From Streptococcus sp. (lineage in GTDB: Bacteria > Bacillota > Bacilli > Lactobacillales > Streptococcaceae): a DNA stretch of 64,000 bases. Positions 30,381-64,000 of this stretch are shown piece after piece. Every line of letters begins with the position of its first letter. Within the stretch, counting starts at the first letter, position 1. The notes under the pieces were generated by a model, which saw nothing but the letters and a program-made list of their open reading frames with translations, did no database searches and had not been told where the DNA came from. A program made the position numbers and the translations under genes. The DNA is taken from positions 93,455-157,454 of the forward strand of contig JAUMZW010000001.1 in assembly GCA_030527925.1 (NCBI GenBank), written 5' to 3'.

Positions 30381-30590
30381 AAATCCTTTATTTTAAGCAC
30401 TTTTTCAAGCATTTTGTCTTTATTGAAAAGAGTGATTTTGACATAAAAAAGGTGCAAAAAAAGTACATTGATGTGAACGTCTGTTTGGATGTCGACTGCG
30501 TAGACAAAAAATAGATACGTCATAAAATATAATAGTTCAGCGAGAACATTTTAATAAGTGTTCTCGTTTTTTTATTTTCAGGAGGAATTC

Positions 30591-30764
30591 ATGCAAAAGC
30601 AAGAACAATCATCACGCCAAATCGTGATGTGTCATCTCGTGACTATCTTAGGAGTTGATATTGAGAAAGCAACTCAGCTAATTGATGAAATGGAACAAGT
30701 AGGTTTAATCCGATTTGATGAATTTGGAAATGTTGGAATTTTAGTCTTGGGGGGACAATCATGA
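30591..30764 (+). CDS. Small protein resembling an FtsK gamma (winged-helix, KOPS-binding) domain.
   Basis: 57 aa starting at the ATG at 30591, after the RBS caggagg. The C-terminus ATQLIDEMEQVGLI resembles the FtsK-gamma signature (...RLIDQMEAxGIV). The stop overlaps the repA_N start (ATGA). Confidence 0.4.
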   Translation: MQKQEQSSRQIVMCHLVTILGVDIEKATQLIDEMEQVGLIRFDEFGNVGILVLGGQS

Positions 30765-31579
30765 AACGTATTATCGCTAATCAGTATCAGACATCAGAGC
30801 GTTATTATAAACTCCCTAAAATTTTGTTTGAGAGTGAACGTTATAAGGATATGAAGCTGGAAGTTAAGGTAGCCTACGCGGTTTTAAAAGATCGGTTGGA
30901 GTTGTCTTTGAGTAAAGGCTGGATTGATGAGGATGGGGCTATTTATTTGATTTATTCCAATTCAAATCTGATGGCACTATTAGGCTGTTCAAAGTCAAAA
31001 TTACTCTCTATCAAGAAAACCTTACGCGAATATGGCTTAATTGATGAAGTCCAACAGTCCTCTAGTGAAAGAGGTCGAATGGCAAATAAAATTTACTTGG
31101 GGGAATTAGAACATGAAACTACCCCAGTCTTACATTCAGACGGGGCTAGTGTTAAAAAAACACTAGGGGGGTCTCAAAGAAAGACGGGGCCGGTCTTATA
31201 TTCAGCCCCTAGTGAGACTGAAGGAAGTGAGACTAAATATAGTGAAACTAAAGGGAGTGATTTCCTTATTGAGGACGAGGAGGAGAGGCAGCTAGTAGAT
31301 GAGAAAAAAGAAGAAAACTTTACTTCAAAAGTTGATGGCGTGACCAAGTACGATCGAGACTATATTTGGGGTTTGGTTCATGACCAGTTAAGACAGACAG
31401 GTCTATCTCAGTCTGCTAGTGACTATGCCATGATTTATTTTAGTGACCGTTATCAGTATGCATTGGAACATATGCGATTTGCTCGGTCAGCGGAAGTAAT
31501 AGCTGAATACGTATTTAATGGTGTGTTGTCAGAGTGGACCAAGCAACTGAGACGACAAGAAGTAAAAGGAGGTGAATAA
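30761..31579 (+). CDS. Replication initiator protein A (RepA_N family) of Firmicutes plasmids and ICEs.
   Basis: 272 aa. N-terminus YYKLPKILFESERYKDMKLEVKVAYAVLKDRLELS is the RepA_N signature. Confidence 0.65.
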   Translation: MKRIIANQYQTSERYYKLPKILFESERYKDMKLEVKVAYAVLKDRLELSLSKGWIDEDGAIYLIYSNSNLMALLGCSKSKLLSIKKTLREYGLIDEVQQSSSERGRMANKIYLGELEHETTPVLHSDGASVKKTLGGSQRKTGPVLYSAPSETEGSETKYSETKGSDFLIEDEEERQLVDEKKEENFTSKVDGVTKYDRDYIWGLVHDQLRQTGLSQSASDYAMIYFSDRYQYALEHMRFARSAEVIAEYVFNGVLSEWTKQLRRQEVKGGE

Positions 31580-31727
31580 GATGATTTGGTGGATACTAGG
31601 TGGAATCTATCTGATTTCTATCATCATTTTGATTGTTGAAATCATCCGTGCACCAGAAATGGATGATCATATATAAGCAAGAGTTTTACAAGTGTAAGGC
31701 TCTTTTTTAGTTGGAAAGAGAGGAAAA

Positions 31728-33083
31728 ATGAAATTTTTAGATTTATTTGCTGGGATAGGTGGTTTTAGGCTAGGGTTGGAATCACAGGGTCATAAATGCC
31801 TGGGCTTTTGTGAAATTGATAAGTTCGCTAGAACATCTTATAAAGCCATGTTTAACACAGAAGGGGAAATAGAATATCATGACATTAAAGAGGTCACAGA
31901 CCATGACTTTAGACAATTTAGAGGGCAAGTGGACATCATCTGCGGGGGATTTCCTTGCCAAGCATTTTCACTCGCAGGCAGACGATTGGGATTTGAAGAT
32001 ACTCGAGGGACTCTCTTTTTTGAGATTGCTCGAGCGGCCAAACAAATCCAACCACGTTTTCTATTTTTGGAAAACGTCAAAGGCCTACTCAATCACGACG
32101 AGGGACGGACGTTCGCCACAATCCTCTCCACGATGGATGAATTGGGGTATGATGTCGAATGGCAGGTGCTTAACAGTAAGGACTTCCAAGTCCCGCAAAA
32201 CAGAGAGCGGGTCTTTATTATCGGACATTCTAGAAGATACCGTTCCAGATTCATATTTCCTCTCAGAAGAGAAAACAGCCCAGCTCATCTTGAAAGGCTA
32301 GGAAATATCAATCCCTCTAAACGTGGTTTGAATGGTGAAGTCTATCTAACGACTGGACTTGCTCCTACACTAACGAGAGGTAAAGGAGAGGGGGGAAAAA
32401 TCGCCATTCCAGTCTTAACACCAGATAGACTTGAAAAACGGCAACATGGGCGTCGCTTTAAGGACAATCAAGACCCTATGTTTACTTTGACAAGTCAAGA
32501 CAGACACGGAGTTGTTGTCGCAGGAAATCTGCCGACTAGCTTTGACCAGACCGGTAGAGTATTTGACATTTCTGGCTTGTCACCGACCTTGACCACCATG
32601 CAAGGTGGAGACAAGGTGCCAAAGATTTTACTGAGGGAGGAGCTGCCATTTCTGAAGATCAAGGAAGCCACAAAAACAGGGTACGCAAAGGCCACTCTTG
32701 GAGACTCTGTCAATCTGGCTTATCCAGACTCAACCAAACGTAGGGGACGAGTGGGAAAGGGAATATCCAATACTCTGACTACTTCAGACAATATGGGAGT
32801 GGTGGTTGCTGCTCTGGAATATCGACAGGATAAGTGGTATGAAGTCACAGGCATTGTCTTAGAGGGGAAACTTTATCGCCTGAGAATTAGACGACTGACA
32901 CCAAGAGAGTGTTTCAGACTTCAAGGTTTTCCTGATTGGGCTTATGAAAGAGCAGAAAGTGTTTCTAGTAAAAGCCAACTATACAAACAGGCAGGCAATA
33001 GCGTGACTGTCACAGTTATTGAAGCCATTGCCAGAGAATTTAGAAGAATTGAAGAGGAAGAAAAACATGAACCTACTACATAA
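31728..33083 (+). CDS. dcm: DNA (cytosine-5)-methyltransferase, apparently an orphan.
   Basis: 451 aa. Motif I FAGIGGF, motif IV GFPCQAFS (catalytic Cys), motif VI ENVKGL, and C-terminal motif X QAGNSV. Confidence 0.9.
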   Translation: MKFLDLFAGIGGFRLGLESQGHKCLGFCEIDKFARTSYKAMFNTEGEIEYHDIKEVTDHDFRQFRGQVDIICGGFPCQAFSLAGRRLGFEDTRGTLFFEIARAAKQIQPRFLFLENVKGLLNHDEGRTFATILSTMDELGYDVEWQVLNSKDFQVPQNRERVFIIGHSRRYRSRFIFPLRRENSPAHLERLGNINPSKRGLNGEVYLTTGLAPTLTRGKGEGGKIAIPVLTPDRLEKRQHGRRFKDNQDPMFTLTSQDRHGVVVAGNLPTSFDQTGRVFDISGLSPTLTTMQGGDKVPKILLREELPFLKIKEATKTGYAKATLGDSVNLAYPDSTKRRGRVGKGISNTLTTSDNMGVVVAALEYRQDKWYEVTGIVLEGKLYRLRIRRLTPRECFRLQGFPDWAYERAESVSSKSQLYKQAGNSVTVTVIEAIAREFRRIEEEEKHEPTT

Positions 33084-33495
33084 GAAAAGTATCCTAGAGT
33101 GTACTGAATTAGAGGAACGTATTCACCAAGTTGGAACCAATCAGTTATTACAAAAGATATTGTCGCTCCCCAATTTTGATTGTGACTTTGAGGTGACTTT
33201 TGAAGATGATTACCACAAAGAGATGAATGATCCCCTATTCTACGAATCCAATCTTCATCGGATTTCGGATTTTTTGGAAACTAGGGATATTAAAAATGGT
33301 GTAGATACACTATTGACGAAAGACAATCACCTGGTCTTTCGTGCCTTTGGTCAAAATTATACTGCTAGGGGAAAGGATGGTATTTTAACGACTTTGGTGA
33401 CGGTCAAGTGCTTTGATGAAGGACGGATGCCCATTGATATGAGTCGCTATTTCTCAACTCCTGAACCAACAGTTGAAAATAGCTTAACCCTATAA
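33067..33495 (+). CDS. Hypothetical protein, 142 aa, translationally coupled to the MTase.
   Basis: The ATG at 33067 lies inside the MTase 3' end (17-nt overlap), with the RBS gaagaggaag upstream. No recognisable motif. No Vsr-like DGCFWH motif. Confidence 0.4.
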   Translation: MNLLHKKSILECTELEERIHQVGTNQLLQKILSLPNFDCDFEVTFEDDYHKEMNDPLFYESNLHRISDFLETRDIKNGVDTLLTKDNHLVFRAFGQNYTARGKDGILTTLVTVKCFDEGRMPIDMSRYFSTPEPTVENSLTL

Positions 33496-33505
33496 GGAGG
33501 AGCCT

Positions 33506-63119: not shown

Positions 63120-63410
63120 ATTCCACCTCCAATCTTGTTATTGAACAGTAAAAAATATAGAAAAAGTAGGGACTTCGAACGATTGAAGCTTTCACTTTCT
63201 TTTGTTAGTTTTCGATACTTCGCAATTTTTTAAAAGCATTTTGATATTGCATATTAGTATATTTTGCTATCTCTTCAAAATCATTATTTCTTAACCTTAC
63301 AAATCGTACGGGGAATAAATCGGAAAACAAACGCAATAATCGTTGCTTACATTTATAAAAAAGACTTGACATATTTCGTTTACAATGGTAGACTCATTTT
63401 GAACATATTC

Positions 63411-63426
63411 GTTTACATTTGTAAAC
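63411..63426 (+). promoter_or_regulatory. cop box (CopY operator) upstream of copY. A second degenerate copy lies at 63378-63393.
   Basis: GTTTACATTTGTAAAC contains the conserved TACAnnTGTA. Upstream GTTTACAATGGTAGAC is a one-mismatch copy. TTGACA at 63365-63370 may serve as the -35. Confidence 0.5.
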
Positions 63427-63444
63427 AACAAGGAGGAAAGGAAA

Positions 63445-63894
63445 ATGAGCACAATAGAACTTAATACTTCTATCACAGATGCTGAATGGGAAGTAATGCG
63501 TGTAGTTTGGGCAAATGGTCTAGTAACTAGTAAAACAGTCATCTCTGTTTTGAAAGAAAAAATGAACTGGACAGAATCCACTATCAAAACGATCTTAGGT
63601 CGATTAGTTGAAAAAGGCGTACTAAATACAGAGCAAGAAGGTAGAAAGTTTATTTACACTGCCAATATTGTAGAGAAAGAAGCCGTAAGGGATTTTGCAG
63701 AAGATATTTTTAACCGTATTTGCAAAAAGAAAGTCGGAAATGTAATAGGAAGCATCATTGAAGATCATGTCTTGAGCTTCGATGATATAGATCGACTAGA
63801 AAAAATATTAGAGATAAAAAAATCTTTCGCAGTAGAAGAAGTGGATTGCAATTGTCCAGAAAGACAATGCGAGTGTCATTTACATCATCATTAA
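63445..63894 (+). CDS. copY: CopY/TcrY-family copper-responsive repressor.
   Basis: 149 aa. Winged-helix N-domain (BlaI/MecI/CopY family) and the C-terminal metal-binding CxC-x4-CxC (VDCNCPERQCECH). Confidence 0.8.
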   Translation: MSTIELNTSITDAEWEVMRVVWANGLVTSKTVISVLKEKMNWTESTIKTILGRLVEKGVLNTEQEGRKFIYTANIVEKEAVRDFAEDIFNRICKKKVGNVIGSIIEDHVLSFDDIDRLEKILEIKKSFAVEEVDCNCPERQCECHLHHH

Positions 63895-63913
63895 GAATAA
63901 GGAGGAATTTAAA

Positions 63914-64000
63914 ATGAACAATAACAACAAACATTTATCCCACTGTCACCATAATCATGGCGACATGGATCATTCAAAACATGAGCACGTAAGCACGGAA
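63914..64000 (+). CDS. copA: His-rich N-terminus of the next cop-operon gene, most likely the P-type ATPase CopA. Truncated by the window end.
   Basis: RBS ggagg 8 nt before the ATG at 63914. MNNNNKHLSHCHHNHGDMDHSKHEH is a His-rich metal-binding leader. The ORF is still open at nt 64000. Confidence 0.45.
   Translation, partial: MNNNNKHLSHCHHNHGDMDHSKHEHVSTE

Follow-up and report, generated by a model that had tools for sequence, protein, structure and literature searches.

What kind of DNA follows the rlmD (rumA) gene in a 64,000-nt stretch of a Streptococcus contig (hereafter the window), where does it begin, and can it still move? The window lies on a 184,173-bp contig of a metagenome-assembled genome (MAG) annotated 'Streptococcus sp.', and its proteins are MDO4634416-MDO4634451. 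The left flank is ordinary chromosome, carrying queA, the sialic-acid (nan) operon, gdhA, tRNA-Arg(CCG), gyrB, ezrA, eno, aroA, aroK, pheA, a LytR-CpsA-Psr gene (lytR) and rlmD. At the end of rlmD the gene content switches from housekeeping to conjugation genes and the GC content rises from 0.324 over 1-30338 to 0.399 over 30339-64000 (per kb, about 0.29-0.39 up to 30 kb and then about 0.38-0.46), a change that an earlier note on this DNA had correctly described. The large open reading frames (ORFs) past 30.6 kb are all on the + strand. The results below indicate that 30339-64000 is very probably the left ~33.7 kb of an integrative and conjugative element (ICE) of the Tn5252 superfamily, ICESa2603 family-like and of the ICESluvan/ICESag37 type, which is inserted in rlmD/rumA and is probably impaired in transfer. 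Gene calls were judged by the curated Pfam cut-off, with further checks by NCBIfam, PADLOC, Rfam, tblastn and megablast. Loci compared with the window are labelled L001-L038.

The element is inserted within rlmD

The rlmD/rumA gene (29010-30380, + strand) encodes a 456-aa protein with the Pfam domains tRNA_U5-meth_tr and TRAM. Its comparison with conspecific 454-aa alleles and with empty-site DNA identified it as a hybrid gene, in which bases 29010-30338 are host-derived and the DNA from the crossover 30339/30340 onward belongs to the ICE. The empty site was found in the conspecific metagenome contigs L031-L036, which carry an uninterrupted 454-aa rlmD and are 99.5% identical to the window over eno-aroA-aroK-pheA-lytR-rlmD; where they read ...ACACATCACGTGGAGTGTGTAGCTCTGCTCGTAAAAGCCTAA, the window reads ...ACACATCACGTGGAGTGCGTAGTGTTGCTACAACGAAGCAACGGGTAA. 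An empty site with such a flank indicates insertion. This comparison had been set beforehand as a test, and it favoured the ICE, since conspecific DNA exists in which no RepA_N-VirB4 block follows rlmD. The crossover is a CA dinucleotide at 30339-30340, 42 nt before the rlmD stop codon, as proposed for ICESluvan (PMC4735348). The 20-mer CACGTGGAGTGCGTAGTGTT at 30339-30358 (+) occurs once in the window and matches, in every base, the attL published for ICESluvan (PMC4735348 Table 2). The same junction is present in four other hosts (S. didelphis L006 and the hosts of L014, L017 and L019): rumA is host-specific up to the CA and the DNA is near-identical beyond it. Because of this shared junction and the published attL match, the element begins at 30339-30341, inside rlmD, and not at 30381 as previously placed. 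Positions 30339-30349 are identical in attB and in the ICE arm, and the first base diagnostic of the ICE is 30350.

As the crossover lies inside rlmD, the last RlmD residues are encoded by ICE DNA, in frame. The native C-terminus ...HHVECVALLVKA gives way to a look-alike, ICE-encoded tail, with HVECV-V-LL versus HVECV-A-LL in the native protein. At 90% identity, the RlmD cluster consists mostly of 454-aa alleles ending ...HHVECVALLVKA.

The rlmD site occurs in at least four states in this Streptococcus species: empty, occupied by this ICE, and in two further junction types, found in L037 (4940-5105) and in L038 (3530-5878), the latter followed by a GmrSD_N (DUF262) gene in 28%-GC DNA. The four states each diverge right after ...ACACATCA, so that the rumA hotspot varies within one species, being empty in some contigs and filled in others by no fewer than three different insertions. 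Most conspecific metagenome contigs end directly after rlmD. An exact look-up of the window RlmD retrieved a single 6-kb contig (L001), which is the only other contig with the window junction and is 100% identical to the window over 6.1 kb; no contig matched in exact look-ups with the window RepA_N and CopY proteins. One scan of genome contigs with RlmD yielded no conspecific genome, the nearest being S. didelphis (69% aa identity) and Streptococcus sp. X13SY08 (68%).

The backbone is that of Tn5252-type elements

Relative loci were retrieved via the Maff2-like and DUF5945 proteins, which are 100% identical to proteins in thousands of assemblies; the named members of these clusters come from S. 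suis, S. agalactiae, S. pluranimalium, S. pasteurianus, S. canis, S. uberis and E. faecium. The backbone is collinear with, and 92-96% identical in nucleotide sequence to, elements at rumA (L014, L017, L019) and at rplL (L013, L015, L016, L018). The syntenic ICESa2603-type set is present, with repA, dcm, virD4, virB6, virB4, a virB1-like hydrolase, SNF2, primase and DUF59xx genes; the core gene list of the family has the genes for the cytosine methylase, RepA, SNF2 and the DNA primase as conserved members (PMC4735348). Among the ICEs of S. suis, those of the Tn5252 family are the commonest, and they occupy rplL, the inside of rumA and mutT (PMC7168690). Together, the attL match, the collinear backbone and the literature bear out the earlier proposal of a Tn5252/ICESa2603-type ICE at the rumA hotspot.

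The closest described elements are ICESluvan (Streptococcus lutetiensis, 94 kb), whose attL 20-mer is that of the window, and ICESag37 (S. agalactiae, 73 kb). Both were termed 'ICESa2603 family-like', having an ICESa2603 backbone and a serine integrase that targets rumA (PMC4735348, PMC5633684), and ICESag37 excises and transfers (PMC5633684). They share with the window the rumA site and the order repA, dcm, virD4, virB6, virB4, CHAP, SNF2, primase. In contrast to them, the window element resides in an uncultured low-GC Streptococcus, carries AbiD and copY/copA as cargo, contains an IS110 insertion and three premature stops, and has its right end beyond the window. With the ICESa2603 family sensu stricto (ICESa2603, 89K/ICESsu05ZYH33-1, ICESsu32457) it shares a conjugation and maintenance backbone that is 95-96% identical in nucleotide sequence from ~30540 (L013, L015, L016, L018), and ICESa2603 has copper-resistance cargo similar to that of the window (as do L002/L003). 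However, those elements use a tyrosine integrase with Xis and a 15-bp att, TTATTTAAGAGTAAC, at the 3' end of rplL, whereas the window element is in rlmD; this att was absent from the window with one mismatch allowed. The window element thus falls outside the family in the strict sense, which is marked by the tyrosine integrase and the rplL att. Tn5252 of S. pneumoniae, the prototype of the superfamily, has the relaxase/MobC type (orf4/orf9) of the window relatives and a similar general layout of the type IV secretion system (T4SS), but it integrates at rbgA via a tyrosine integrase, unlike the window element. The element is therefore of a known, well-described kind and is of little interest except for the catalogue, in which it adds an uncultured low-GC Streptococcus to the recorded hosts of the very widespread S. 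suis / S. agalactiae pool of Tn5252-type ICEs.

The element very probably extends beyond the window

As the earlier note had stated, neither integrase nor relaxase is encoded in the window: no relevant Pfam domain was present, and a rumA-type serine integrase gave only E>0.1 in tblastn. That note had also named an excisionase among the missing genes. Members of the rumA type rely on one large serine recombinase, whose own gene contains attR (PMC4701971, PMC5633684), and a tyrosine int/xis pair is therefore not expected. Neither the window nor any of the first 21 loci contains the published attR 20-mer. The oriT of the family has a GATATTGTG inverted repeat and the nick site CTCG/CAAA; its canonical motif (GATATTGTG...CACAATATC...CTCGCAAA) was not found in the window and is present in L023, L004 and L005.

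Continuation past the window, which had been foreseen, is well supported by the MAG contig L021. It is 96.5% identical to window 59966-64000, up to the window end. Beyond that point it encodes a 705-aa P-type ATPase (CopA) and has an ORF of 272 aa, and these are followed by a site resembling oriT (with CTCGCAAA and a variant of the inverted repeat) and by genes for an orf10-like protein, MobC and a relaxase of 621 aa. In the window element, copA, oriT, mobC and the relaxase gene are accordingly expected ~4-7 kb beyond position 64000. A search with the published attR 20-mer brought up one IMG/VR contig (L022/L023), which encodes a 605-aa integrase with Resolvase, Recombinase and Zn_ribbon_recom domains and has the attR 20-mer at the 3' end of this gene. 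The integrase gene ends ...CAAGGACCAGACAACA/CACGTCGAGTGTGTTGCTCTGCTCG, that is, the P arm and then the native rumA 3' end. L023 also has a relaxase gene of the L021 type (93% nucleotide identity), and the serine integrase gene with attR is ~7 kb further on. By comparison with these loci, we infer that a large serine recombinase with attR in its own gene lies at the far end of the window element. Its attR is predicted to read ...GACAACA followed by CACGTGGAGTGTGTAGCTCTGCTCG..., the recombinase gene ending ...CAAGGACCAGACAACA and being followed by CACGTGGAGTGTGTAGCTCTGCTCGTAAAAGCCTAA (attR plus the native rlmD 3' end).

Relatives and literature suggest the following course of transfer. In the excised circle, the left-arm stretch described below would complete the single large serine recombinase gene coming from the far end. 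After excision, MobC and a relaxase of the Tn5252 orf4 type would nick oriT, and VirD4 would pass the strand to a Gram-positive T4SS made of VirB4, TrbL/VirB6, PrgI, the Maff2-like protein and the CHAP/lysozyme hydrolase. The antigen I/II (AgI/II) adhesin may aid cell contact, and the primase, RepA_N, Dcm and the methyltransferase (MTase)-SNF2 protein probably help the element to become established in the recipient, by priming, by replicating the circle and by evading restriction.

Three backbone genes carry premature stops and an IS110 element has inserted

Gene-by-gene comparison with intact relatives revealed two features that the earlier note had not mentioned: in-frame stops in three backbone genes and an IS110-family insertion sequence (IS). 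All three stop codons are sense codons in every relative checked. In the TrbL_2/VirB6-like gene (37379-38233), GAA is changed to TAA at 38132-38134 (codon 252 of 284), the codon being GAA in 6/6 relatives (L013, L014, L016, L017, L019, L020); the stop deletes the last predicted transmembrane helix. In the so-called PPI gene of Tn5252-type ICEs (60035-60673), named peptidylprolyl isomerase by NCBI, CAA is changed to TAA at 60644-60646 (codon 204 of 212) and nine residues are lost. In the DUF3991-Toprim primase-like gene (60713-61789), a premature TGA is found at 60830-60832 (codon 40 of 358), where relatives have CGG; this gene is either a pseudogene or restarts at GTG 60887. No VirB6-like protein of the window sequence was present in the protein collection, and the VirB6-like and primase genes are passed over in the NCBI MDO accession series, which suggests that they were called as pseudogenes. 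The other backbone genes are intact.

The IS110-family element (57640-59266, 1.63 kb, +; transposase 57888-59090, Pfam DEDD_Tnp_IS110 and Transposase_20) is a separate insertion in the intergenic region between the SNF2 and DUF5962 genes, a site that is uninterrupted in L002-L005. Its ends are ambiguous by ~5 bp (AGAAA). The stops in the VirB6-like, primase and PPI genes, together with IS110, suggest that this copy is probably impaired in transfer and is perhaps becoming a decayed ICE. As such it would be a clean example of early ICE decay, by nonsense point mutations and an IS, with the accessory genes in the window intact.

In the region 57631-57890, the 5' non-coding leader of IS110 (~250 nt) folds stably (z = -3.2). 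It contains an exact 11-mer, TATAAGAAACA (57762-57772), identical to the element's own left target junction (57631-57641) and located within a 10-bp stem, beside a repeated GCGCTAGACGTCG; this looks like the target guide of an IS110 bridge RNA. The leader had no Rfam match. Over the whole window, only tRNA-Arg was matched by Rfam, with nothing credible inside the IS110 element.

Other explanations of the locus

Several points weigh against a continuing, transfer-impaired ICE. In this copy, the integrase and relaxase genes, attR and oriT would all lie outside the window, and its completeness is judged from relatives only. The three stops rest on one MAG consensus, and L001, although 100% identical, may come from the same sample. 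The divergence of the window copy is no higher than that of its relatives (104 private substitutions in 13.2 kb), and any decay is recent. Loss of the nine PPI residues may be harmless, and a restart at GTG 60887 could give a 300-aa primase fragment. The same element might then be fully self-transmissible, the stops being consensus errors of the MAG or tolerated and IS110 sitting harmlessly between genes. This is possible, if rather unlikely: the large genes for VirD4, VirB4, the CHAP hydrolase and SNF2 are indeed intact and 96-98% identical to relatives, and ICESag37, of the same type, transfers experimentally (PMC5633684), but three independent substitutions have produced stops at codons that are sense in the relatives, one of them removing a predicted helix of the VirB6-like protein and another falling early in the primase gene, and the gaps in the accession numbering point in the same direction. 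That the element is instead a truncated remnant, a fixed genomic island that has lost its right end (relaxase and/or integrase, attR) by deletion, appears improbable. A decayed copy at rumA that lacks the whole T4SS (window 33526-42649) does exist in S. didelphis L006, the window copy already has stops and an IS, and the umuC/umuD-cadD block found between DUF5960 and copY in L002/L003 is missing from it. However, L021, the closest relative, shares the DUF5960-copY arrangement of the window and still runs on into mobC and the relaxase gene, and the window shows no sign of a break.

Two further readings would question the junction or the nature of the element. The ICE could have been joined to the Streptococcus chromosome by metagenomic mis-assembly or by a binning chimera, since the source is a MAG and Logan contigs from this species stop at rlmD or directly behind it. 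We regard this as very unlikely: L001 spans the junction, the join coincides exactly with the published crossover, giving a canonical attL, the same junction type recurs in the four other hosts, and contig breaks are expected at a polymorphic hotspot. Equally, a RepA_N initiator and a 'phage tail lysozyme' domain are present, and prophages also target rumA (PMC7168690), which could speak for an integrated RepA_N conjugative plasmid or a prophage. Hardly any probability attaches to either, as a megablast search of 72,556 plasmids produced no more than two short matches of 74-79% identity, the element has a chromosomal flank with attL, no capsid, terminase or tail genes are present in the window, and backbone and attL match those of described ICEs. 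We thus retain the reading of a Tn5252-type ICE that begins inside rlmD, continues past the window and is probably impaired in transfer.

The private substitutions of this ICE comprise 66 GC>AT and 26 AT>GC changes. Host-driven amelioration towards AT was considered from these numbers and set aside, the ratio being within the range of the relatives and hence uninformative.

The left arm may belong to the integrase gene

Positions 30341-30514 (+) correspond to the P' arm of a serine-integrase module, as indicated by a conserved frame, a primer match and the relatives. Within it, 30341-30511 is an open stretch of 57 codons, followed by a stop, in the frame that would continue the integrase; this frame differs from that of the rlmD tail. 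In L006, L014, L017 and L019, the diverged S. didelphis copy included, this frame is likewise uninterrupted and terminates at the stop used in the window. The arm specific to the rumA type extends to ~30540. Homology to the rplL-type relatives begins at 30540-30567, and since these share the backbone only from there, the initial ~200 bp are peculiar to the recombination module of the rumA type. Two ICESag37 primers match the two ends of such elements: 'rumAR' matches window 30481-30500 exactly and 'intR' matches the L022 integrase with one mismatch. The open frame of the P' arm also fits the location of att within the integrase gene reported by Ambroset et al. in 2016 (PMC4701971).

It is conceivable, though doubtful, that the 42 nt at 30339-30380 act as dual-coding switch DNA, which would encode a near-native RlmD C-terminus when the element is integrated and an integrase tail when it is excised. 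The near-native C-terminus might then keep the RlmD methyltransferase active, and an attL that resembled attB sufficiently could take further elements. The integrase would have a tail of 57 residues in the excised state and a shorter hybrid tail in the integrated state (23 residues in L022/L023), and its activity or directionality could depend on the physical state of the element; coupling of integrase activity or directionality to the integration state is a speculation that was raised by Ambroset et al. (PMC4701971). The open frame in five hosts and the four site states in one species are compatible with the dual-coding idea and are no proof of function.

Genes of the element

Most of the gene names given in the earlier note were supported by Pfam: RepA_N, Dcm, VirD4, PrgI, VirB4, lysozyme/CHAP, Abi_2, the AgI/II adhesin, MTase plus SNF2, Toprim_2 and CopY scored at or above the cut-off, and the T4SS module and cargo proposed there are present. 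Maff2, VirB6/TrbL, M23 and DUF3991 remained below it, and a 'PcfB-like' gene found no support from Pfam or NCBIfam in any ORF upstream of virD4. The genes are on the + strand unless stated otherwise. A small ORF of 57 aa (30591-30764), called in L001 and in relatives and with no family match, overlaps the start of repA (30761-31579), a core gene of the family that encodes the RepA_N replication initiator (113 bits in Pfam; 97% aa identity to L019); relatives of this protein carry names from S. suis and S. agalactiae. Next is the C5 cytosine DNA methyltransferase gene dcm (31728-33083; 289 bits in Pfam, MTase_II/oMTase in PADLOC), which corresponds to core gene SAG1297 (PMC4735348) and is an orphan backbone gene with a probable anti-restriction role. 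Five conserved small backbone ORFs, recognized from Pfam, NCBIfam and relatives, fill 33067-35283: 33067-33495, 33506-33889 (with a weak Spx/ArsC-like match), 33898-34131, 34134-34718 (a Rce1-like CAAX protease) and 34795-35283.

The conjugation module starts with an intact VirD4/TraG coupling protein of 605 aa (35283-37100; T4SS-DNA_transf, 229 bits in Pfam; 97.9% aa identity to L019) and a Maff2-like small membrane protein (37106-37360) that is 100% identical to widespread relatives. The interrupted TrbL_2/VirB6-like channel protein follows; its relatives score as PF19478 TrbL_2 and carry the NCBI name TrbL. It precedes a PrgI-family, VirB3-like protein (38295-38648; 47 bits in Pfam), an intact VirB4-like ATPase (38626-40956; P-loop_TraG and DUF87 in Pfam; 98.5% aa identity to L019) and a cell-wall hydrolase with M23, lysozyme and CHAP domains (40958-43759; 95.8% aa identity to L019), the VirB1 analogue.

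The abortive-infection gene at 43897-44907 (Abi_2 in Pfam, AbiD in PADLOC; GC 0.30) occupies a variable hotspot, in which most relatives have AbiEi/AbiEii. It is followed by the gene for a 1631-aa antigen I/II (SspB-type) LPXTG adhesin, recognized by Pfam (45140-50035), by a conserved ORF of 184 aa with no function assigned (50208-50762) and by that for an intact 2278-aa N6-adenine MTase-SNF2 helicase fusion (50799-57635; 95.4% aa identity to L002), which corresponds to core gene SAG1280 (PMC4735348). An adhesion role has been demonstrated for ICE-borne sspB (PMC5656748). The clear accessory genes are AbiD and copY/copA; the earlier note had listed the Abi gene and, as a possibility, copper resistance. 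The same list had included the adhesin, Dcm and the MTase-SNF2 protein. The latter two are conserved backbone (PMC4735348), and the adhesin, found as the same 1631-aa protein in all relatives seen, may be backbone rather than cargo.

Beyond IS110, backbone genes encode DUF5962 (59336-59635) and DUF5966 (59649-59939), both from Pfam, followed by the interrupted PPI and primase-like genes; in the latter, DUF3991 scored just below the cut-off. A VirB8 identity was considered for 60035-60646 and not adopted, the Pfam match being weak and sub-threshold and the NCBI name being peptidylprolyl isomerase. DUF5965 (61843-62070), DUF5945 (62067-62456) and a 98-aa ORF (62506-62802) are on the + strand and DUF5960 (62811-63119) is on the - strand. 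Copper-resistance cargo closes the window (63445-64000), with copY at 63445-63894 (Penicillinase_R in Pfam) and the first 29 codons of copA at 63914-64000, cut by the window end. An ORF at 63297-63587 (-) overlaps the promoter and start of copY and was rejected as spurious. No antibiotic resistance gene was seen in the window, and neither were van, erm(B), tet(O) and nisK/R.

Minor observations concern these genes and their relatives. The C-terminal metal-binding motif of CopY is CNCPERQCECHLHHH versus CQCTEGQCDCHEGC in the common allele, and the N-terminus of CopA is unusually His-rich (MNNNNKHLSHCHHNHGDMDHSKHEH). The interval 63133-63346 between DUF5960 and copY is a variable hotspot, at which the window and L021 have no counterpart of the umuC/umuD-like, cadD and neighbouring genes of the ICESa2603-like relatives L002/L003 (11067-16125). 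In S. didelphis DSM 15616 (L006 11321-21359), the decayed copy in rumA has lost the DNA from virD4 to most of the CHAP gene and its attL core has two substitutions. Group II intron reverse transcriptases (RVT_1) are found in relatives within virD4 (L020 1260-4565) and in place of most of the SNF2 gene (L005 262-3920), and a block with an erm-type methylase (RrnaAD), omega-epsilon-zeta and a serine resolvase is at the SNF2 position in L004. In the left flank, the enolase ORF at 23420-24796 (TTG start, 458 aa) exceeds the 432-aa call in the conspecific L031 only through the choice of start codon.

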